Of a DNA stretch of 64,000 nucleotides, positions 23,806 to 64,000 are shown in pieces. Position 1 is the first letter of the stretch, and the number at the start of each line of letters is the position of its first letter. A model generated the notes under the pieces. That model worked only from the letters and a program-made list of their open reading frames with translations. It made no database searches and was not told where the DNA came from. This stretch comes from Callorhinchus milii (Eukaryota), in assembly GCF_018977255.1 (NCBI RefSeq), contig NW_024704755.1, forward strand, positions 11,594,001 to 11,658,000. Reading direction: 5' to 3'. Position numbers and translations under genes: made by a program.

Positions 23806-24840
23806 TTACATATTGCTCTGGGATTCCAGATCATTAACCAGGGAGCCACTTTCCTTTTGCAGCATATTAATGTCTTCTTTGGTGGATTCTTCTTTTGTGT
23901 TTTCGATCATTTGCTCAAACACCTTTGCCAGCTTTGAAGATAGAAAGCCTTGTCGAAAATTGCGAGCAGCAAATGCATAGAGTAAGGGGTTAATGCTGCT
24001 GCTAATGAATGCCAAAGCTCCTGAAAGATATGATCCAGTGTCAGAAATATGCTTGAATCGCGTTGATACTTCCGTCGTTTCTATCAGGATGGAAGCGATT
24101 TCAAGCAGGTTGAACAAATGGTAAGGAAACCAGCAAACAACAAAAACTATCACAATCCTTGCAATCAGCATTGATGTCTGATTTTTCTTCTTATAAGTCA
24201 TTTGCTTTACCCTTTTTCCAACACACATGTAGCACACCGTGAGCACTGTAAACGGAATTGCAAATCCAACCGAAGTCTCCAATCCAAGGCATATAATCTG
24301 CAGTGTGTCGGACTCGTAGAGATGAAGCACACATTGGAGGTGATCGCCGGTAACTTCTACTTTGTTACTGAACAAAGCAGGAAGAGCCAGGAGTAAAGTT
24401 AATGACCACACAACCACCAATACTTTGGCAACAAAAGCATTCTTCCTCCACTTTTGTGAGGCAAATGGGTAGATTACAGCCATGAAACGGTCAATGCTCA
24501 TCAGTGTAATGAAGAACACGCTGCCGTACAAGTTGCAATAAATCAAGACGAGCAGAATTCTACACAAAGCTTCTCCGAAGATCCAGCCATTTGAGATTGC
24601 ATAGATCCACAGGGGCAATGTGATCAGAACAACGGAATCAGCTATTGCTAGGTTGAGGATCAGCAAGGCAGTGGGAGACCGTTGTTTTATCTTCCACACA
24701 ATGACCCAGATAACTAGTAAGTTCCCCGGAACTCCAATAATGTAGGTCAGTCCAAGGATGACGCTGGCAACTATATTTTGAATTTCATCCATTGAGTCAT
24801 ACGTTCCATTGCTGCTGAGAGATTCATTAACCGGCCCCAT
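23806..24840 (-). CDS. LTB4R: Leukotriene B4 receptor-like (BLT family) class A GPCR, intronless, 344 aa, intact
   Basis: Seven hydrophobic segments with GVPGN (TM1), LNLAIAD (TM2), ECL1 WIFG, C3.25 (LCRI), SIDRF (TM3), ECL2 Cys (LQCV), CWFPYH (TM6), NPLLY (TM7). BLT-like hallmarks: KQRSPTALLILNLA, PFASQKWR, ETSVGFAIPF, LAFISSSINP. Family is clear; 1:1 orthology to BLT1 or BLT2 is not established. Confidence 0.9.
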   Translation of the reverse strand: MGPVNESLSSNGTYDSMDEIQNIVASVILGLTYIIGVPGNLLVIWVIVWKIKQRSPTALLILNLAIADSVVLITLPLWIYAISNGWIFGEALCRILLVLIYCNLYGSVFFITLMSIDRFMAVIYPFASQKWRKNAFVAKVLVVVWSLTLLLALPALFSNKVEVTGDHLQCVLHLYESDTLQIICLGLETSVGFAIPFTVLTVCYMCVGKRVKQMTYKKKNQTSMLIARIVIVFVVCWFPYHLFNLLEIASILIETTEVSTRFKHISDTGSYLSGALAFISSSINPLLYAFAARNFRQGFLSSKLAKVFEQMIENTKEESTKEDINMLQKESGSLVNDLESQSNM

Positions 24841-26043: not shown

Positions 26044-26569
26044 CGAATACACGTGAAAGGTTTGACAGATGCACCTTCATGGGGGAAAAAAAGTGATTGT
26101 AATCACAAAGTTATTGTATAGAGTAATTAGTGCATTGAGTTTGAACAGGGCTGAGTAGAGCTGAAATAACAGAAAAAAATAATAATAGGAAAGACAGTTA
26201 ATTGTCTATTTAAAATGAAAGGAACTGATTAACAAATGCCATAGCAATGCAGATAAAAAGGTTTGTGCTCTATGCTAATTTAGGCATCTGGGGAAAGCAC
26301 CTGAAACTTAGCAAATGTCTTTAACTGAGAGAGCAGACAGAAGCAAACCACGGTTCCCATTCCTGAGCTCTGAAATTTCCAATGGTCTTAGCCTTAAGAT
26401 CACTGTCTTCAAATTTAAGATTGTGCATCATTTTGGAAAATGCTTAAATTTAGTTTTAATAATAATAACCTTTGTATTTGATACAGCACCTTATCATGCC
26501 ATTAAGATAGCTCAAAGTGCTTCACAGACTATATTGTAAAGTGGATTGACCATGTATTTTGCGGGCGAA

Positions 26570-27705
26570 ACAACAACAACAAAATTAAATTTGTATAGCG
26601 CCTTTCACGTCGGGAAGACTTACCAGGCGCTAGATAGTCAGAGTTTCCATCCCCGAGCTGGGGATCGGGATTGGGGAGGGTGGAGGCCAGCGGGGGAAGC
26701 AGGGTGATTGAAAGCACGGTCGAAGACGAGGGTCTTGAGATGGGTCTTGAAGGAGGGAAGGGAAGGGGCGAGACGGAAGGACTGTGGAATGGCGTTCCAG
26801 AGGGTGGGGGCAGAGTGGCGGAAAGCCGACGGGAGCCAATCAGGAGAGCCTCGGTCTTATTGATGTTCAACTGAAGAAAGTTAACTCTCATACCGGATTT
26901 GATGTCTGACAGACATTCTGTCAGGACAGCAGTGGTCCTGGAGTCAAGGGTGGAGGCAGAGAGGTACAGTTGGGTGTCATCCGCATACATGTGGAAGTTA
27001 ACCCCATGTCTGCGGATGATGTCACCAAGAGGAAGCATATAGATTTTGAAGAGGAGGGGACCAAGGACAGAGGCCCTGAGGAACGCTGCACGAGACCATG
27101 CGGGGGCTGGAAGAGAAACCATTAGTGGAGATGAAGTGGAGGCAGATGAGAGGTATGACCTGAACCAGCTAAGGACAGAGCCTTGAAGGTTGAGGTGCAA
27201 GGAGAGGTGGTGGGTGAGGATAGAGTGGTCAATGATGTCGAAGGCAGTAGAGAGGTCAAGGAGGACGAGGAGACAGAGGGGGCCCTGCGCGCAGATGGAC
27301 AGAATGTAATTTTGTCATTTTGACCAGGGCTTTTTCTGTGCAGTGGGCCGCACGGAAACCCGATTGGAGAGGTTATTATTATTATTATTATTATTATTAT
27401 TTGTTTGATAGTCTCAATCCTATAGTTACCACCCCAAAAGAGCTGTGGAAATCTGGCTATAAAACCAAAACAATTTTTTGTGGAAGGGAGTGGCGGGTGA
27501 GGAAGGAGCGAAGCTGGGAAGCAACAACTCATACCAGGACCTTTGAGATGAAAGGGAGGTTGGAGATGGGGCGGTAGTTTGAGAGCAGTGATGGGTCCAG
27601 GGAGGGATTTTAAGGATAGGAGTGATGATGGCCACTTTTAATGGGGTGGGAACAGTACCAGTGGACAGGGAGAGGTTTATGATATAAGGCAGCCAATAGC
27701 GTACA
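26570..27705 (-). mobile_element. L2 LINE fragment (RT domain + 3' end, internally deleted)
   Basis: [52 protein letters not shown]; (TTG)n tail at 26570. Confidence 0.9.
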
Positions 27706-33895: not shown

Positions 33896-34924
33896 TTAAG
33901 TGGTCTGCAGAGAATGCATTTCCTGCATAGTGAGGCTAATCTCGGTTCCTGTTTTAATTACGGTTTCCCTCCTGGAATCATCTTTGATGGAATGTGTCAG
34001 CTGATCAAATAACCTGGCGAAGCTGGATGCTCGTAAACCACTTTGAAATTTCCGGGCGGCGAAAGCGTAAAGTATAGGGTTCACGCAGCTATTGATAAAG
34101 GTCAAAGCACCTACGATATGGACTACATGTTCAACAGCATTCTCTAGTGCGTCTGACATGTCCTTGTCCGAGTTCTTCATCAACAGCGCTGTGGTGGAGA
34201 TCATGTTGACGAGGTGGTGAGGCACCCAGCAGATGAAAAACGCCACCATGATACTGACGATCACTTTGCCTGTGTTGTTGGGACGAGTGAAGTTCATCTG
34301 CTTGATTTTTCTGACGATGCAGACATAGCAGACAGTCAGCACTGTGAAAGGGATTGCGAAAGAGACCACAATCTCTAAAACCTGGACTGCTTTCTGCTGT
34401 CCATCTGAAGAGTAATTTCTATAGAAACATTGTTGATTCCCACTGGGGTCCGTGTCTATCTCCTGAACCAATAAGATTGGAATGGAGAAGAGAAAAGCCA
34501 AGATCCAAACTACAAGCACCGTTTTAACAACAACATGGTTCTTCCTCCACTTTTGGATAACAAATGGATAGAGCACAGCCAAGAAGCGGTCGATGCTCAT
34601 CATCATGATGAGGAACACACTGATGTACATGTTGCAGCAAACAATGTAGGAAATAATCTTGCACATAGCCTGTCCAAAGTCCCAGCTGTTTAAGAAGGCA
34701 TAAATCCACAGAGGCAAGGTGATCAGTACCAGGAAGTCAGCAACGGCCAGGTTTAGTATCAACACTACAGTGGGAGATCGCTGCCTCATGGTACAGAGTA
34801 TAATCCAGATGACTAAGAAATTGCCTGGAACTCCGATAAGGAAAGCAGAGCCCAACACTAAACTGGCCGTTATTCCTGCTAGATCGGTCGACTGATCAGT
34901 TTCATTGCTGCTTGACAACTCCAT
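33896..34924 (-). CDS. LTB4R: Leukotriene B4 receptor-like GPCR, intronless, intact (~342 aa from ATG at 34924)
   Basis: ORF track begins at a TTG (34951); first in-frame ATG is 34924 (MELSSSNETD, N-glycosylation sequon). GVPGN, LNLAVAD, WDFG, MCKI, SIDRF, QQCFYRNYSSD, CWVPHH and NPILY are all present. Paralogue of the 23.8 kb gene. Confidence 0.9.
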   Translation of the reverse strand: MELSSSNETDQSTDLAGITASLVLGSAFLIGVPGNFLVIWIILCTMRQRSPTVVLILNLAVADFLVLITLPLWIYAFLNSWDFGQAMCKIISYIVCCNMYISVFLIMMMSIDRFLAVLYPFVIQKWRKNHVVVKTVLVVWILAFLFSIPILLVQEIDTDPSGNQQCFYRNYSSDGQQKAVQVLEIVVSFAIPFTVLTVCYVCIVRKIKQMNFTRPNNTGKVIVSIMVAFFICWVPHHLVNMISTTALLMKNSDKDMSDALENAVEHVVHIVGALTFINSCVNPILYAFAARKFQSGLRASSFARLFDQLTHSIKDDSRRETVIKTGTEISLTMQEMHSLQTT

Positions 34925-35554: not shown

Positions 35555-36415
35555 TAACAACAACAAGATTACATCCCAAGGTGCTGGACAGTGTACAGCA
35601 TTTCAGACCTGAGCTGGGGTCAGGGAGGGAGAAGGGAGGGGAGGGGAAGGGGGGTGACTGATGGCATGGTCGAAGAGGAGGGTTTTGAGGCGGGACTTGA
35701 AGGAGGCTAAGGAGGGGGCGAGGCGGAATGATTGGGGGATGAAGTTCCAGAGGTTGGGGGCAGAGTGGCTGAAGGCTTTCCCGCCACTGGTGGGGCGGGT
35801 GGGACGGGGGACGTGGAGCAGGCCGGAGCCTGCTGAGCAGAGGGAGCGGGCAGGTTGGTAGGGGGTTAGGAGGTCACAGTGGTAGCATGGGGTGAGGACA
35901 TGGAGAGCTTTGAGGTGAGGACCAGGATCTTGAACTGGATCCTCTGAAGGATAGGGAGCCAATGGAGTCGGGCGAGAATGGGGGAGATGGGGTCACAGAG
36001 TTTGGTGCGGGAGAGGACACGGGCTGCAGAGTTCTGGATTATCTGCAGCCTGTGGAGGGAGGAGTTGGGAAGGCCGACAAGCAGAGCGTTTGCATAGTCG
36101 AGCCTGGAGGTGATGAAGGCATGAACAAGAGTTTCAGTGGCCTGAGGGGTGAGGTAGTGACAGAGTCGGACTATGTTACGGAGGTGAGGGAAGGCAGAGC
36201 GGGTCATGGCTTGGATAGGGGGGGGGTTGAACAAGACCCCTAGGTTCCTGACTGGCTTGGTGAGTTGAAGTGTGCAACCATGGAGGTTGATGCTGCCAGA
36301 GCCTGAGGTGCTGAGGCGCTGGCGTGAGCCAATCAGAAGGGCCTTAATCTTCTTCACATTCAACTGTAGGAAATTTTCCCTCATCCAGGACTTGACGTCC
36401 GACAGGCAGTCTGAA
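35555..36415 (-). mobile_element. L2 LINE 3' fragment
   Basis: NFLQLNVKK...ETLVHAFITSRLDYANALLVGLP...LQIIQNSAARVL...LHWLPI. Confidence 0.9.
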
Positions 36416-43560: not shown

Positions 43561-43942
43561 TAGGATTAGCAGTGTTACTAACAAAAGTTAAAACTTTAGA
43601 AAGCATCGAAATGTAACTATAAATACTTTCAATCTTTTCGAGTATTCTGGGTTTGAAGTCTTGTTCAGCACTGACGAAACCTTAATGACATTTCTTGTAT
43701 GATATGGTAACCAGCAAAGTGCAAACAGAATCACCACACCCACAATCAGCCTTCCAGTTTTATTCTTGCCCTAGGTTTGGAAGATTGACTCTTTTGAAAA
43801 CAGACCATCAGTGTGATGAACGGAATGACAAATCCAATCAAGGTTTCCAGCAGAAGAACTGTGATCTGCTGCTGATCAGATGAATATTCTCGTTTTAAAC
43901 GTGGGCGCCCATCTCTGATGTCAGTGGATGACAGGAATAGCG
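43561..43942 (-). pseudogene. Deleted fragment (TM4 end to TM7) of the divergent LTB4R-like clade
   Basis: Close DNA match to 53300-53712 (e.g. CAGAAGAACTGTGATCTGCTGCTGATC) with several small internal deletions. The 5' half and C-terminal tail are missing, and it joins directly to the shared 3' flank. Confidence 0.85.
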
Positions 43943-44149: not shown

Positions 44150-44885
44150 AAAATTACATTAGAATACATTGGAACATATAGCACAGAAACAGGCCATTTG
44201 ACCTAACTGGTCTATGCCGGTGTTTATGCTCCACATGAGCTTCCTCCTGCTCTTCCTCAACTAAGCCTTCAACCATAACCTTCTATTCCTTTCCTCCCGA
44301 CATGAAAGGCGCAATGCAAATGTAATCTTGTTGTTGTTCTCCCTCATGTATCAATCTAACTTTCCCTTAAATACATGCCCTTCCTCAACTAAGCCTTCAA
44401 GCGTAACCTTCTATTCCTTTCTCCCTCATGTACCTATTCAACTTTCCCTTAAATACATCTATGCTATTTTCGTCAACAACCCCTTGTGGTAGCAGTTCCA
44501 CATTCCCACTACTCTCTGTGTGAAGAAATTTCTTCTCATTTCCCTATTTGATCTATTTGTGACTATTTTATATTGATGGCCCCTGGTTTTGATCTCCCCC
44601 ACAAGTGGAAACATCTTATTTATGTCTACCCTATCAAAACTTTTCATAATTTTAAAGACCTCTATCCCTTACCCTCCTCTTTTCAAGAGAAAAGCATCCA
44701 AGCATGTTCAGCCTTTCCTGATAGGTATAACCTCTCAGTTCTGGGATCATCCTTGTGAATCTCCTTTGCACCCTCTCCAGTGCCTCTATATTTCTTCTGT
44801 AATCTGAGGACCAGAACTGCCCACGGTATTCTAAGTGTGGTCTAACCAAGATTCTATAGAAGTTTACCATAACTTCCCTACTTTG
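44150..44885 (-). mobile_element. CR1 LINE 3' fragment (inverted duplicate of the 39 kb copy)
   Basis: YRILVRPHLEYRGQFWS...LERVQRRFTRMIPEL; TRGHQYK...RRNFFTQRVV. Confidence 0.9.
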
Positions 44886-45303
44886 GAGCTGTTGCAGTAC
44901 TGGTGATCTCTGAAAAAAGGGCTGATCAGGCTTTGGGTTTTCAAGGCATAGAAGGCATGGTGAGAATGTGAAACTCACTGCCAGAAGTAAAATAAGAAAT
45001 AAAATAAGAAGTTGGCTTAGTAAGCAACCATAAAAAATCTGTTTCCTTGCTTTAATGTTCTGTACAATTCTACGAAAATCAACTAAAATAAAATTGATTT
45101 CCACCAATCTTAACAGAAAACTTATCATTTTCATTATGATACTTAATATCTGAGCAACCTGCATGACAACACATGGGAATTAATCATCTAACCTAAACCA
45201 TCAATCACATCCTTATTAATCTCTCAATTTTTAAATTGCAGTATGCTCAATGAATCCATATTATTTGTGGTTGCAAAACATACATATATAATGATAAGAT
45301 GTT

Positions 45304-46314
45304 TTATGGATCAATTCGTTCTTCTGTTTCCCTTCCTGAGTTTTCTTCTGCATTGTCCCTTCCTGGATTTTGAAGTTCTTCAGAAGGACGGTTTATATAT
45401 TCAAAGAGTTTAGCAAAACTTAAGATTTTAAACCCAGCCTTAAATCTCCGGGCAGCAAATGCATACAGAATAGGGTTACTGCAGCTGCTGATGAAAACTA
45501 AGGTTCCAGTAACAATATCCATTGTTTCAACAATGTTTTTTAATGTCAATGCAAATTCAGAGTTGCTGCTTTCGATCATCAGTGAAGAAATTGTGATGAT
45601 GTTTGTTATTTGATAAGGCGACCAGCAAAGTACAAAAGTTACTACAACCCCTATAATTAACTTTTCAGATTTCCCTCTTGTTTGAAAGGTCATTTGTTTT
45701 ATTCTTTTGAAAACAATGGTGTAACAGACCAACAGAGTGGTGAAAGGAACGACAAAACCAACCAAGAGCTTAAACAGACAAATTACTATTTGTTGCTGGC
45801 CGGACGAGTAGGAAGTCACACATTTTAGCTGTCCATTTCTATTTTCTAATTTTTGGATAATGAGAGAATAAATAGCAATCAGAAAAGCTGAAACCCAAAT
45901 ACTGATGATTGCTTTACCAATAAATCCATGAGTAGCAAATGGGTAGAGCGCAGCCATCAGGCGCTTGACACTCACCAAGGTGATGAAGAACAGACTGGCA
46001 TATAAAGAACAGAAGATGAGGAAGGTCGCAGTTTTACAGAACAGCTCTCCATAGACCCAGCCATTGACCAGGGAATGAATCCACAGCGGCAGAGTGATGA
46101 GCACGATGAAATCTGCAAAGGCCAGGTGCAATATCAGCTGGATAGTGGGAGATTTTGTTTTAATGTGGCGAAGAATAATCCAGATCACTAAAGCATTTCC
46201 CGGTCATCCTACAAGAAAAACGATACCAAGAACAACACAGCTCACTGCATTTTGCACTGGTCTAAAAGTGTGAAGAGTTGCATTCTGATCCACAGGGATA
46301 TTGGACAGCGCCAT
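45304..46314 (-). pseudogene. Full-length LTB4R-like pseudogene with an in-frame TGA at codon 37
   Basis: From ATG 46314: MALSNIPVDQNATLHTFRPVQNAVSCVVLGIVFLVG*PGNALVIW, TGA at 46206-46204, in frame with the 294-aa ORF. DRY-type motif reads VKRL, ICL2 is shortened and the TM4 Pro is replaced by Tyr. Confidence 0.85.
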
Positions 46315-50057: not shown

Positions 50058-51065
50058 TTAGGCTGGTATTTCACTTGTCTCGTTCTTCTCTTTGGAAGAA
50101 TTGTTCATTTGTTCAAAGAGTCTTGCGATACTGGACATTTTAAATCCACTCTTGAAGCTCCGAGCAGCAAATGCATAGAGGACAGGATTAGCGGTGTTAC
50201 TAACGAAAGTTAAAACTTTAGAAAGCATCGAAATGTAACTTTCAATACTTTTCAATCTTTTCGAGTATTCTGGGTTTGAAGTCTTGTTCAGCACTGACGA
50301 AACCTTAATGACATTTCTTGTATGATATGGTAACCAGCAAAGTGCAAACAGAATCACCACACCCGCAATCAGCCTTCCAGTTTTACCCTTGTCCCTGGTT
50401 TGGAAGTTCATCAGTTTGACTCTTTTGAAAATAAAAGTGTAACAGACCATCAGTGTGATGAACGGAATGACAAATCCAATCAAGGTTTCCAGCAGAAGAA
50501 CTGTGATCTGCTGCTGATCGGATGAATATCTTCGTTTTAAACGTGGGCGCCCATCTCTGATGTCAGCGGCAACCACTAGGATGACAGGAATAGCGAAGAG
50601 AAAACCTGAAAGCCAGACAGCAGTGACCACTTTACCAACATGTCCTCGTTGCCACCACTTCTGAGCGGTGATCGGATAGAGCACAGCCACAAAGCGCTCA
50701 ATGCTCATGACTGTGATGAGGAACACGCTGGTGTACATGGATGAGAAGAGTAAATAGCCGCTGATTTTCCAGAAAACCAATCCAAGGAACGGAGCATTTG
50801 CAATATCGGAAGCGAAAAAAGGCACCGAGACGAGAGCCATGAGATCTGCCACAGCCAGGTTTAATATCAGCGAGACGGTGGGAGATCGGTGCTTAATATT
50901 CATGAAGATATTCCAGATCACTACGGAATTCCCTGTTGCTCCAACAAGAAAAATAAAACCATAGACACAGGCAATTGCAGTACGCACTGCAACATCAGTG
51001 TGATGAGTTGTATTCAGTCCTGAAGACATGTTGGCCGGCATCATTCTGGTAACAATTTGCTCCAT
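50058..51065 (-). CDS. Divergent LTB4R-like GPCR, copy 1 (335 aa; lacks C3.25 and ECL2 Cys)
   Basis: Intact ORF (ATG 51065, or the second ATG of MMPANMS). GATGN, LNLAVAD, SIERF, CWLPYH, NPVLY; shares KHRSPTVSLILNLA and YAFAAR with the other cluster genes. Confidence 0.88.
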   Translation of the reverse strand: MEQIVTRMMPANMSSGLNTTHHTDVAVRTAIACVYGFIFLVGATGNSVVIWNIFMNIKHRSPTVSLILNLAVADLMALVSVPFFASDIANAPFLGLVFWKISGYLLFSSMYTSVFLITVMSIERFVAVLYPITAQKWWQRGHVGKVVTAVWLSGFLFAIPVILVVAADIRDGRPRLKRRYSSDQQQITVLLLETLIGFVIPFITLMVCYTFIFKRVKLMNFQTRDKGKTGRLIAGVVILFALCWLPYHTRNVIKVSSVLNKTSNPEYSKRLKSIESYISMLSKVLTFVSNTANPVLYAFAARSFKSGFKMSSIARLFEQMNNSSKEKNETSEIPA

Positions 51066-53172: not shown

Positions 53173-54162
53173 TTAGATTAGTATTTCACTTGTCTCTTGG
53201 TTCTTTTCTTTGGAAGAATTGTTCATTTGTTCAAAGAGTCTTGCGATACTGGACATTTTAAATCCACTCTTGAAGCTCCGAGCAGCAAATGCATAGAGGA
53301 TAGGATTAGCGGTGTTACTAACGAAAGTTAAAACTTTAGAAAGCATCGAAATGTAACTATAAATACTTTTCAATCTTTTCGAGTATTCTGGGTTTGAAGT
53401 CTTGTTCAGCACTGACGAAACCTTAATGACATTTCTTATATGATATGGTAACCAGCAAAGTGCAAACAGAATCACCACACCCGCAATCAGCCTTCCAGTT
53501 TTACCCTTGTCCCTGGTTTGGAAGTTCATCAGTTTGACTCTTTTGAAAATAAAAGTGTAACAGACCATCAGTGTGATGAACGGAATGACAAATCCAATCA
53601 AGGTTTCCAGCAGAAGAACTGTGATCTGCTGCTGATCGGATGAATATCTTCGTTTTAAACGTGGGCGCCCATCTCTGATGTCAGCGGCAACCACTAGGAT
53701 GACAGGAATAGCGGAGAGAAAACCTGAAAGCCAGACAGCAGTGACCACTTTACCAACATATCCTCGTTGCCGCCATTTCTGAGCAGTGATCGGATAGAGC
53801 ACAGCCACAAAGCGCTCAATGCTCATGACTGTGATGAGGAACACGCTGGTGTACATGGATGAGAAGAGTAAATAGCCGCTGATTTTCCAGAAAACCAATC
53901 CAAGGTACGGAGCATGTGCAATATCAGAAGCGATAAAAGGCACCGAGACGAGAGCCATGAGATCTGCCACAGCCAGGTTTAATATCAGCGAGACGGTGGG
54001 AGATCGCTGCTTAATATTCATGAAGATATTCCAGATCACTATGGAATTCCCTGTTGCTCCAACAAGAAAAATAAAAACATAAACACAGGCAATTGCAGTA
54101 CGCACTGCAACATCAGTGTGATGAGTTGTATTCAGTCCTGAAGACATGTTGGCCGGCATCAT
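53173..54162 (-). CDS. Divergent LTB4R-like GPCR, copy 2 (tandem duplicate, ~329 aa from ATG 54162)
   Basis: About 98% identical to the 50058 copy. The upstream ATG is TTG here, so the first ATG is MMPANMS at 54162. All TM motifs are intact. Confidence 0.88.
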   Translation of the reverse strand: MMPANMSSGLNTTHHTDVAVRTAIACVYVFIFLVGATGNSIVIWNIFMNIKQRSPTVSLILNLAVADLMALVSVPFIASDIAHAPYLGLVFWKISGYLLFSSMYTSVFLITVMSIERFVAVLYPITAQKWRQRGYVGKVVTAVWLSGFLSAIPVILVVAADIRDGRPRLKRRYSSDQQQITVLLLETLIGFVIPFITLMVCYTFIFKRVKLMNFQTRDKGKTGRLIAGVVILFALCWLPYHIRNVIKVSSVLNKTSNPEYSKRLKSIYSYISMLSKVLTFVSNTANPILYAFAARSFKSGFKMSSIARLFEQMNNSSKEKNQETSEILI

Positions 54163-56276: not shown

Positions 56277-56848
56277 TTAGATTAGTATTTCTCTCGTCTC
56301 TTGGTTCTTTTCTTTGGAAGAATTGTTTATTTCATCAAAGAGTCTTGCGATACTGGACAATTTAAATCCACTCTTGAAGCTCCGAGCAGCAAATGCATAG
56401 AGGATAGGATTAACTGTGTTACTAATGAAAATTAAAACTTTTTGGGTTCCAATGCAATTACCCATACGTTTCAATCTTTTGGAGAGTTCTGGGTTTGAAG
56501 TCTTGTTCAGCACTCACAAAACCTTAATGACATTTCTTGTATGATATGGTAACCAGCAAAGTGCAAACAACATCACCACACCCACAATCAGCCTTCCAGT
56601 TGTACCCTTGTCCTTGGTTTGGAAGATCATCTGTTTGACTCTTTTGAAAATAAAAGTGTAACAGACCATCAGTGTGATGAACGGAATGACAAATCCAACT
56701 AAGGTTTCCAGCAGAAGAACTGTGATCTGCTGCTGATCGGATGAATATCTTCGTTTTAAACGTGGGCGCCCATCTCTGATGTTAAAGGTGAGCACTAGGA
56801 CAACAGGAATAACGAAGAGAAAAGCTGAAAGTCAGTCAGCAGTGACCA
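56277..56848 (-). pseudogene. 5'-truncated pseudogene of the divergent LTB4R-like clade
   Basis: Reads VTAD*LSAFLFVIPVVLVLTFNIRDGRPRLKRRY...KVL*VLNKTS...NPILYAFAAR. TM4 Trp is mutated to TGA, there is a second in-frame TGA at 56516-56514, and homology ends at ~56848. Confidence 0.9.
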
Positions 56849-58499: not shown

Positions 58500-60945
58500 T
58501 GAAGCAGCTGAGCAGATCCTCTCGAATTTGGTTTTGTCCAGCATTGCCTCACAGTTGGCGTTGGTGGTGAGGATGGGTGAAGTGTGAGAGGGTGGGCGGA
58601 GGAGCCGGATGGTGATGGAGAAGAGGAGCCTGGGGTTGTCTTTGGTCTTCAAGATTGTCTTGGAGTAGAATGACGATTTAGCGGGGATGAGGGTAGAACC
58701 ATAAGATTTGATAAGGTCCAGCCAAATCTGCTGAAGGATTTGAGCCAGGTGCGTTCAGCAGCTCACACTTGTGCCTTAAGGGAGCATAGGTGGCTGGTAT
58801 ACCAGGGTGACTTTCGTCTGTAGCAGATGCTTCAAGAAGTGAGGGGAGCAAGGGCATCGAGAGTGGTGGAGAAGGAGTGTGGAGGAGAGTGACCGAGGAG
58901 GAGAGGCCATCGTGGGAGGAAGCCTAGAGTGGGAGGAGTTCAGATGACTCCAAGGCAGTGGAGAAGGAGGCGTAGGGGCGGGGGGAGATTTTTCTCCAAC
59001 AACCACTAGTTTCTGTGAACAGATATATTCTTCTGCAATGCTATTATCAGTTCTGTAAAATAACTAGTGGTGAAAGCACAGAGCACTGCTTCTATCTAAA
59101 CAAGTAGACGATTACTTTAAACAACTGTATTGAATTGTTTCTGGAGAGAGCTTTCTGTGCACAACTGATTGTAAAAGCAACGGAGCAAATTGTTACCAGA
59201 ATGATGCCGGGCAATATGTCTTCAGGACTGAATACAACTCATCACACTAATGTTGCAGTGCGTACTGCAATTGCCTGTATCTACGGTTTGATTTTTCTTG
59301 TTGGAGCAACAGGGAATTCCATAGTGATCTGGAATATCTTCATGAATATTAAGCACCGATCTCCCACCGTCTCGCTGATATTAAACCTGGCTGTGGCAGA
59401 TCTCATGGCTCTCGTCTTGGTGCCTTTTATCGCTTCCGATATTGCAAATGCTCCGTTCCTTGGATTGGTTTTCTGGAAAATCAACGGCTGTTTACTCTTC
59501 ACATCCATGTACACCAGCGTGTTCCTCATCACAGTCATGAGCATTGAGCGCTTTGTGGCTGTGCTCTATCCGATCACCGCCCAGAAGTGGTGGCAACGAG
59601 GACATGTTGGTAAAGTGGTCACTGCTGTCTGGCTTTCAGGTTTTCTCTTCGCTATTCCTGTCATCCTAGTGGTTGCCACTGACATCAGAGATGGGCGCCA
59701 ACGTTTAAAACGAAGATATTCATCCGATCAGCAGCAGATCACAGTTCTTCTGCTGGAAACCTTAGTTGGATTTGTCATTCCGTTCATCACACTGATGGTC
59801 TGTTACACTTTTATTTTCAAAAGAGTCAAACAGATGAACTTCCAAACCAGGGACAAAGGTAAAACTGGAAGGCTGATTGTGGGTGTGGTGATGTTGTTTG
59901 CACTTTGCTGGTTACCATATCATACAAGAAATGTCATTAAGGTTTTGTCGGTGCTGAACAAGACTTCAAGCCCAAAATTCTCCAAAAGATTGAAAAGTAT
60001 TTATACTTACATTTCGATGCTTTCTAAAGTTTTAACTTTTGTTAGTAACACCGTTAATCCTATCCTCTATGCATTTGCTGCTCGGAGCTTCAAGAGTGGA
60101 TTTAAAATGTCCAGTATCGCAAGACTCTTTGAACAAATGAACAATTCTTCCAAAGAAAAGAACCAAGAGACAAGAGAAATACTAATCTAAACCATAGCTG
60201 CGTGAATTTTTAAATCTATTTAAATTGATAATGGAGATATTCTTACCAAAATGTTCCTCTGTACATTTACAATCTTGTTGCAGACTGCTTCTTTAAAAAA
60301 CAATGTTTAGACAATCTTTTTTTATTCAATTGTATTTTCCTGCAGAATGAGTAAACATTGACTGGTACATAGATAGTTGTAAAACACAGTTTATAATAGC
60401 TTATTAGGTTACCTGCTGGTTTGCGTTGTTTATATTCAGTCACATTCATAGCTAGCAGGGTGGGTGCGTGGAACAGTATCATAATAATAATCCTTGCATT
60501 TTTGATATTTGTTATCATATATGTATGAAAGGTATTTTTGTTTTAGTGTAGAACTGTTGTACAGTGGAGGCAACATTGAATGTTTTGTTTATTCCACAAG
60601 TGCAAGAAACTATAAAGTTGCAAGTCAACAACTGCCGTTTGATCATTTATCCATTTTCACGCTGTTCAGTAAGAAATCGATAATAAACACTTTGTCACCT
60701 GTGGCCTTTTTCTGCTTAAAGAGTGTGTCGGACCCCAGCTCTCTTACAGCTTCCCGTTATACACCCATCAGGAATTAATCTTTGATGCTTACTTGTAAAT
60801 GTATCTGATCACCATACGGAGCAATGCATTGCTCAGTGATCCCGTGTTTCGAGTGAATGTCTTGAATGGATTGCCAGCATCTTTTCCTTCAACAAGTCTG
60901 CTTCAAACAGCTACGGTCTTAATGTTATTTATGGGGTTCGCCTCA
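58500..60945. repeat. Inverted duplicate of the receptor unit (L2 relic + promoter + gene + 3' flank)
   Basis: Reverse complement matches ~52400-54900 and 55520-56280, including the upstream L2 relic and the downstream flank. Confidence 0.88.
59201..60190 (+). CDS. Divergent LTB4R-like GPCR, copy 3 (inverted, ~329 aa from ATG 59201)
   Basis: Intact ORF closely similar to copies 1 and 2 but on the opposite strand. The ORF-track start at 59135 is TTG; first ATG is 59201. Confidence 0.88.
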   Translation: MMPGNMSSGLNTTHHTNVAVRTAIACIYGLIFLVGATGNSIVIWNIFMNIKHRSPTVSLILNLAVADLMALVLVPFIASDIANAPFLGLVFWKINGCLLFTSMYTSVFLITVMSIERFVAVLYPITAQKWWQRGHVGKVVTAVWLSGFLFAIPVILVVATDIRDGRQRLKRRYSSDQQQITVLLLETLVGFVIPFITLMVCYTFIFKRVKQMNFQTRDKGKTGRLIVGVVMLFALCWLPYHTRNVIKVLSVLNKTSSPKFSKRLKSIYTYISMLSKVLTFVSNTVNPILYAFAARSFKSGFKMSSIARLFEQMNNSSKEKNQETREILI

Positions 60946-63978: not shown

Positions 63979-64000
63979 ATGATGCCGGGCAATATGTCTT
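63979..64000 (+). CDS. Start of a further divergent LTB4R-like copy (runs off the window)
   Basis: ATG ATG CCG GGC AAT ATG TCT (MMPGNMS) is identical to the start of the 59201 copy, preceded by ~210 bp homologous to the upstream flank of the other copies. Intactness unknown. Confidence 0.7.

Follow-up and report, generated by a model that had tools for sequence, protein, structure and literature searches.

BLT-like receptors of cartilaginous fishes with Trp3.25, no TM3-ECL2 disulfide and a basic outer face, and a furin-like match in ECL2 of the chimaera-type copies

Introduction

BLT1 (LTB4R) shares a single-exon class A fold with the divergent receptors described here (the D type) and is their best sequence match among solved structures. 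BLT1 binds LTB4 through His3.29, Arg4.64, Glu5.42, Arg7.35 and Ile7.39 (PMC8894450; also PMC4349892), and the substitutions H94A and R156A nearly abolish its activity (PMC8894450). Arg4.64 is important in both BLT1 and BLT2, and His3.29 in BLT1 (PMC8894450, PMC4349892). The D receptors retain Met3.36, Tyr3.37, Glu5.42, Gly5.46, Trp6.48, Tyr6.51, His6.52, Asn6.55 and Phe7.43 of BLT1, but they carry Trp for Cys3.25, Leu for the ECL2 Cys, Gly for His3.29, Val for Arg4.64, Ser or Glu for Arg7.35 and Lys for Ile7.39. The non-mammalian LTB4R1-like subfamily of fish, amphibians, reptiles, birds and sharks lies on the same tree branch as D at 35-47% identity, and its genes A, B and C are located in the same tandem cluster. 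Unlike D, this subfamily has Cys3.25 in 176 aligned rows (175 of them with the ECL2 Cys), and its outer loops are acidic on average.

The S1P, LPA1-3, melanocortin and MRGPR receptors are class A receptors without a TM3-ECL2 disulfide. The bridge is likewise missing in GPR20 (PMC12444479) and in CB1, whose Phe3.25 is aromatic as the D residue is (PMC8894450). GPR20 and CB1 use an N-terminal cap or a short ECL2, whereas D keeps a full-length, hairpin-sized ECL2 and its loss of the bridge is nested in a family that otherwise keeps it. When the disulfide was removed from peptide receptors, G-protein signalling was impaired in a receptor-specific manner and arrestin recruitment was severely reduced or lost (PMC10419011). 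In GPR84, Arg172 of ECL2 forms a salt bridge with the fatty-acid carboxyl and guides its entry (PMC10241960), an anchoring of an anionic head group by an ECL2 Arg that resembles what is proposed below for D; unlike D, GPR84 has retained the conserved disulfide in addition to another one, and no close kinship is claimed. PARs, adhesion GPCRs and GPR37 resemble D in bearing a basic motif on the extracellular part, but their cuts lie in the N-terminal ectodomain (PMC12444479, PMC12315979). Neither a convertase cut in the ECL2 of a GPCR nor a paper on the shark/chimaera BLT-like receptor group was found in the literature searched, with most subscription journals outside its coverage, and the word "leukotriene" is absent from a survey of chicken GPCRs (PMC1472694).

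A first-pass annotation of this locus singled out a polybasic ECL2 with a furin-type site. The observation is real but was over-read, and the result to retain is a type of BLT-like receptor in cartilaginous fishes with Trp3.25, without the disulfide and with a basic outer face. Eighteen natural receptors with open frames and no bridge, with disulfide-bearing sister paralogs in the same cluster, offer a comparison for the role of the bridge and its replacement. The group is also a handle for finding the ligand of the uncharacterised non-mammalian BLT-like subfamily.

Results

A tandem cluster of BLT-like receptor genes

Within the window, i.e., the whole stretch of 64,000 nucleotides analysed, single-exon genes for class A GPCRs lie clustered in tandem, namely genes A, B and C and several divergent D copies:

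23806..24840, minus strand: gene A, BLT-like paralog with both cysteines present (ORF, Pfam)
33896..34924, minus strand: gene B, BLT-like paralog with both cysteines present (ORF, Pfam)
43562..43942, minus strand: copy D0, truncated and frameshifted fragment downstream of gene C, RPRLKR kept
45304..46314, minus strand: gene C, Cys-bearing sister paralog whose TM1 contains a TGA (46204-46206)
50058..51044, minus strand: copy D1, intact single-exon BLT-like class A GPCR of 328 aa, ATG at 51044 (ORF, Pfam)
53173..54162, minus strand: copy D2, intact, 329 aa, RPRLKRR, in a tandem unit about 3.1 kb from D1
56277..56848, minus strand: copy D3, pseudogene fragment whose CDS lacks the first 415 nt, RPRLKRR kept
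59201..60190, plus strand: copy D4, intact, inverted, 329 aa, RQRLKRR
63979..64000, plus strand: beginning of another copy of the D type, whose opening codons match the N-terminus of P0125

The residues of D1 are numbered from the ATG at 51044; a second in-frame ATG lies upstream at 51065. In-frame stops interrupt D3 at 56832-56834 and 56514-56516. The closest named relatives are Callorhinchus milii proteins (85-87%), and copies beyond the window were covered as protein sequences. Among the proteins collected, P0125 is a fourth intact D-type paralog, with GRPHLKRR in ECL2, and it is presumably the gene that starts at 63979; "the four intact D copies" below are D1, D2, D4 and P0125. The D copies are young tandem duplicates, and the coding identity of D1 and D2 (97.6%) equals that of their flanks (1931/1981). 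No tandem repeats were found within 42-64 kb of the window. Dispersed repeats are numerous in the window, and three ORFs between the receptor genes (26529-27122, 35866-36384 and 44652-45164) resemble LINE reverse-transcriptase fragments. Five database gene models (P0003, P0019, P0122, P0124 and P0129) apparently splice or fuse neighbouring single-exon copies, e.g., a B/A chimera and a 554-aa fusion. The TGA of gene C may be an allele or an assembly error, because a contig of run X5 has Leu at this codon. Gene C also carries Lys3.49, Lys5.42, Gln6.52 and a shortened ICL2, and its N-terminus is much like that of the shark Trp3.25 proteins, yet it keeps both cysteines.

D1 covers the whole Pfam 7tm_1 profile (PF00001, E 1.8e-43), and its best sequence match in the PDB is human BLT1 (E 2.3e-41). 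The core anchors N39, D67, R117, W144, P194, P239 and P287 are all present, and the motifs take the forms ERF, CWLPY and NPVLY. The TM3-ECL2 disulfide, which is usual but not universal in class A, is missing in D1; Cys26, Cys201 and Cys236 are the only cysteines of D1 and D2. In a fold comparison, the D1 model matched peptide and chemoattractant receptors with Z of about 30 and rmsd of 2.1-2.9, and no single family was indicated, many class A receptors being tied near Z 29-30. In trees, the window genes group with proteins named "leukotriene B4 receptor 1-like" that come from sharks, bony fishes and tetrapods. A clade with support of 99 unites D, gene C, a Cys-bearing shark sister group and a shark/ray group with Trp3.25. 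In a quick tree of 39 rows, nine representatives with His3.29/Arg4.64 form a clade of their own (support 99), and the window genes fall outside it, in its sister group (support 87). Since the BLT1 pocket residues differ and the His3.29/Arg4.64 receptors occupy a separate clade, the D genes are BLT-like rather than BLT1. The full reading set out in the Discussion, of which an orphan BLT-like receptor type of cartilaginous fishes is one part, is in our judgement somewhat more probable than its negation.

Loss of the TM3-ECL2 disulfide

Homology searches and a cluster look-up yielded 205 proteins. Sixteen of them (fusions, fragments, duplicates of window genes and near-identical cluster members) were left out, and the remaining 189 were aligned with six window translations to give 195 rows. 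Position 3.25 is Cys in 176 rows, Trp in 18 and Gln in one. The ECL2 Cys is kept in 175 of the 176 Cys3.25 rows and missing in 17 of the 18 Trp3.25 rows. ECL2 had been described as untethered in the first-pass annotation, and both partners of the disulfide are gone in the D copies. Two residues of D1 mark this group:

50769..50771, minus strand: Trp92 at 3.25 (TGG), replacing the TM3 Cys; present in 3/3 intact window copies
50304..50306, minus strand: Lys247 at 6.58, basic in all Trp3.25 proteins

The Trp3.25 set consists of the four chimaera-type D copies and 14 full-length proteins of sharks, rays and skates (13 named species and one further record), and assembly error as the source of Trp3.25 is ruled out by the occurrence of the residue in 18 proteins from at least 14 taxa. 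Further residues accompany Trp3.25. Lys or Arg occupies 6.58 in 18/18 Trp3.25 proteins vs. 3/176 Cys3.25 proteins, and Phe occupies 3.33 in 15/18 vs. 1/176. The ECL2 of the shark/ray members follows the pattern G-R/H-P-x-x-R-x-Y/H-S-S. The Arg two residues before the ECL2 Tyr, found in 18/18 Trp3.25 proteins, also occurs in 90/176 Cys3.25 proteins and is thus a family inheritance. A profile search of 50%-identity representatives, a coarse set, gave 211 aligned stretches (144 new proteins and the query), 61 of which did not cover both sites; the query was the only one with Trp3.25 and no ECL2 Cys. One whale shark protein (P0135) combines Trp3.25 with an ECL2 Cys at a 45.50-like position, which would leave an unpaired extracellular cysteine. 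Judged by its distribution across these sequences, the loss of the disulfide is an older feature than the furin-like motif.

The trees differ on whether the disulfide was lost once or twice. With the trait columns in, D joins the shark/ray Trp3.25 group with support of 87-89. Once these columns are taken out, 4, 8 and 12% of the bootstrap trees contain this union, D leans to gene C or to the Cys-bearing shark sister group (83/73, 86/84), and the AU test does not reject the union of D with the shark/ray group (p 0.227). Trees of single segments, which are short and were built quickly, disagree as well: TM3 places D with the shark/ray group (90) and TM5-ICL3 places it with gene C (93). By a strict majority count, D shares eight derived residues with the Cys-bearing sister group, six with gene C and two with the shark/ray group alone. 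The dS between D and gene C is about 0.8, vs. 1.6-2.1 between D and genes A and B. The TM5-ICL3 grouping and the low dS suggest either an old conversion tract between D and C or closer kinship, and we read the conflict among trees as a mosaic produced by conversion among tandem paralogs. The stem branch of D is long (0.68-0.73 substitutions per site), and chimaeras separated from sharks and rays about 400 million years ago. We consider it rather probable that the Trp3.25 trait had a single origin; convergence on Trp together with Lys/Arg6.58 would itself be notable.

Pocket and outer charge

At the BLT1 pocket sites 3.29, 4.64, 5.42, 7.35 and 7.39, D has Gly, Val, Glu, Ser/Glu and Lys, respectively. 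Gly96 (3.29) and Val158 (4.64) are found in 4/4 intact D copies, and with His3.29 and Arg4.64 absent the D ligand is probably not LTB4. One pocket residue is confined to the four chimaera-type copies:

50217..50219, minus strand: Lys276 at 7.39, pocket position (Ile271 in BLT1)

Position 7.39 is Lys in 4/4 D copies, Gly in 14/14 shark/ray relatives and Gly in 154/166 others. Asp2.63 (50805-50807, minus strand, in D1) has the same restricted distribution as Lys7.39. In addition, Trp2.60 and the ECL1 Trp, each present in 166/166 other relatives, are lost in 4/4 D copies. As far as these residues tell, the D copies have a separately rebuilt pocket.

Adding up the charges of the three extracellular loops gives +4 to +10 for the four intact D copies and, on average, -3.8 for 166 other relatives, which bears out the earlier suggestion of a cationic surface. 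The same sum is +1 to +5 in the shark/ray Trp3.25 proteins, where the net charge of ECL2 itself is modest (-1 to +2). Charge does not strictly track the loss of cysteine, since the seven Cys-bearing sister proteins also range from 0 to +7.

The basic motif in ECL2

The ECL2 segment of D1, DIRDGRPRLKRRYS, spans residues 161-174 at 50523-50564 on the minus strand; the interval first given for it, 50524..50565, was one base out of frame. The motif itself and two further basic stretches named with it are as follows:

50532..50543, minus strand: RLKR, the R-x-K/R-R match (R168-R171), with L169 (50538-50540) at the ECL2 Cys 45.50 position
50247..50264, minus strand: SKRLKS, ECL3/TM7 junction
50313..50327, minus strand: YHTRN, top of TM6, with Arg 6.54

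The motif does replace the Cys-bearing segment of ECL2, as had been claimed: it lies between TM4 and TM5 in gap-free alignment with human BLT1, with Leu opposite the BLT1 ECL2 Cys. The BLT1 alignment and the structure model both place it in ECL2, on the extracellular/lumenal side, and the cytoplasmic location that had been named as a check is ruled out. D2 has the same ECL2 reading at 53638-53682 (minus strand), and D4 has DGRQRLKRRYS at 59681-59725 (plus strand). Four copies had been credited with the motif. Three of them, at 50.1, 53.2 and 59.2 kb, are intact; the copy at 56.3 kb reads NIRDG... and is a truncated, stop-bearing fragment, though the motif is still in it. A fifth carrier of RPRLKR, the frameshifted fragment at 43562-43942, had not been listed. 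SKRLKS and YHTRN are both present as described, but they are not special to the Cys-less type or to the idea of cleavage, since the YHTRN Arg occurs in 5/7 Cys-bearing sister proteins (and in 0/14 shark/ray Cys-less proteins) and in human BLT1, too, the top of TM7 carries KRL. An N-glycosylation sequon, NKT at residue 253 of ECL3 (50283-50291, minus strand), adjoins the basic loops of D1; it is also found in D2 and D4 and is absent from P0125.

An AlphaFold model of D1 was built from an alignment of 150 sequences (mean pLDDT 84). In this model, ECL2 is a two-strand hairpin (pLDDT 76-84), although 132 of the 150 alignment rows are disulfide-bearing and may impose the hairpin. TM4 ends at 157, the strands span 158-163 and 166-171, and TM5 starts at 176 (numbering shifted by one), which leaves a loop of 18 residues between the helices. 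Residues 161-174 are modelled as the turn and second strand of the hairpin, with RPRLKR as that second strand. With only the 18 Cys-less sequences as input, the model reached pLDDT 51 and was discarded.

The pattern R-x-K/R-R is expected by chance in 0.5% of 22-mers drawn from the protein composition and in 16% of shuffles of the D1 ECL2. Anywhere in the protein it occurs in 39/205 collected proteins, whereas in the TM4-TM5 segment it occurs in 0/176 Cys3.25 relatives, and a motif in ECL2 is thus unusual for the family. The three motif bearers count as one event, being duplicates of 96-98% identity. Among sequences of other chimaeras, 77 short candidate fragments were retrieved, and none was accepted. 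The motif was also said to survive while its neighbours vary. Among the four intact copies, this does not hold: 2/7 motif positions vary, compared with 59/328 positions overall, and one of the two variable positions is the P4 Arg (His in P0125). All four intact copies have R166, K170, R171 and R172 unchanged, as a protease site would also predict. Conservation among copies as evidence of selection is rejected, the copies being young, the flanks of D1 and D2 as alike as their coding sequences and the dead fragments D0 and D3 still carrying the motif. In run X1, which is labelled RNA by guess, a 525-nt contig across ECL2 carries six changes, all as in P0125, including the His at P4; since X1 also covers broken copies with low-depth pieces, this contig is not evidence of transcription.

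Discussion

We favor, as somewhat more probable than its negation, the explanation that D is an orphan BLT-like receptor of a single chain, in which a Trp serves as non-covalent tether and a cationic vestibule receives an anionic ligand that is not LTB4. Under this explanation, Trp3.25 would pack on the G-R-P-x strand and hold the ECL2 hairpin without a covalent bond. The family's inherited ECL2 Arg (R171), Lys6.58 and Lys7.39 would form a cationic entrance that draws in and anchors an anionic ligand, possibly a fatty-acid-derived carboxylate, a phosphorylated metabolite or an acidic peptide, in analogy to the ECL2 Arg of GPR84 that holds a carboxylate. The receptor would work as one uncut chain, and RLKR would be the outcome of one more Arg added to an already basic strand. 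The furin-like site, local and variable as it is, looks more like a by-product than like a conserved mechanism.

The same residues could be explained, though we regard this as unlikely, by relaxed selection, with the D copies drifting after tandem amplification, the basic residues and the furin match being functionless and some copies becoming pseudogenes. The pairwise dN/dS values among D1, D2 and D4 are 1.03, 0.92 and 0.70. The data reject 0.3 (P 0.001-0.009) but do not reject 1.0, and no sign of purifying selection is seen in these three pairs. Such ratios near 1 provide no proof of selection for any function. Consistent with drift are also the equal identity of coding and flanking sequence in D1 and D2, the two dead D fragments in the window, the long stem branch, and the loss of the otherwise invariant Trp2.60 and ECL1 Trp in all four copies. 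On the other hand, four copies retain full frames and core motifs, and the dN/dS of D against genes A and B is 0.26-0.31, with synonymous sites near saturation. The combination of Trp3.25, Phe3.33 and Lys/Arg6.58 is, moreover, common to intact shark and ray genes, and the clustering of differences in ECL3-TM7 (22 of the 59 among intact copies fall in residues 249-289) would also be expected from diversifying selection on the pocket. Drift and the preferred reading of a tethered, cationic receptor can both hold in part, the ancient trait being functional and the extra Arg incidental.

The first-pass annotation proposed a furin-cleavable, two-chain or protease-sensing receptor, an idea that is weakly supported at best, its core match standing while the variable P4, the lack of a selection sign and the structured hairpin of the model tell against it. 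Here ECL2 would have gained a convertase or trypsin-like site, and a cut after R171 would give TM1-4 and TM5-7 halves acting constitutively or as a protease sensor, which we judge quite improbable. A cut between RPRLKR and RY would have basic residues at P6 (R), P4 (R), P2 (K) and P1 (R) in D1, D2 and D4, and P0125 retains the basic P6, P2 and P1. The loop faces the extracellular/lumenal side, the motif is found in none of the 176 disulfide-bearing relatives, and there is no disulfide to hold the halves together or stiffen the loop. However, a furin site is described as extending over 20 residues, with a core of eight and, at P7-P14 and P3'-P6', flanks that are flexible and solvent-accessible, and a sequence that matches the four letters may be poorly cut (PMC3281273). 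The modelled loop has 18 residues, and P14-P6' would cover residues 158-177, from the end of TM4 into TM5. P4 varies among the copies, with His in P0125, and the copies give no signal of selection. The full furin pattern is present in 3/18 Trp3.25 proteins and is not conserved with the loss of cysteine. Pro occupies the homologous P4 in 14/14 shark/ray Trp3.25 proteins, and a minimal R-x-x-R, placed one residue earlier than the D motif, is all that two rays have. Furin cleavage cannot be why the disulfide was lost, because the motif is absent from 14/14 shark/ray relatives. A true convertase cut in ECL2 would be the more striking result if true; the comparative evidence leans against it.

It is comparably improbable that the old loss of the disulfide later let the chimaera branch evolve a true ECL2 protease site. 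Such a history would yield a split GPCR or protease sensor in which Lys7.39 and Lys6.58 belong to a new pocket and the paralog with His at P4 is less cleavable.

Least probable, and in our view very unlikely, is a constitutively active receptor whose ECL2, once freed, enters the pocket and acts there as built-in agonist or lid: many orphan receptors have an ECL2 agonist of this kind, in GPR21 and GPR52 with a key Lys, and the disulfide-free GPR20 is constitutively active (PMC12444479), and the pocket lining is acidic (Glu5.42; Asp2.63 in D; Glu4.64 in 11/14 and Asp7.36 in 10/14 shark/ray proteins), but ECL2 built-in agonists depend on the conserved disulfide (PMC12444479) and the model shows an ordinary hairpin in a fold like that of peptide and chemoattractant receptors.

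A divergent group within the same clade (P0201, P0212 and P0213) has LRL for DRY/ERF and lacks Cys3.25, with a Cys earlier in ECL1 and one in ECL2. The disulfide may have shifted in this group, which would make it a second case in which this link was remodelled.
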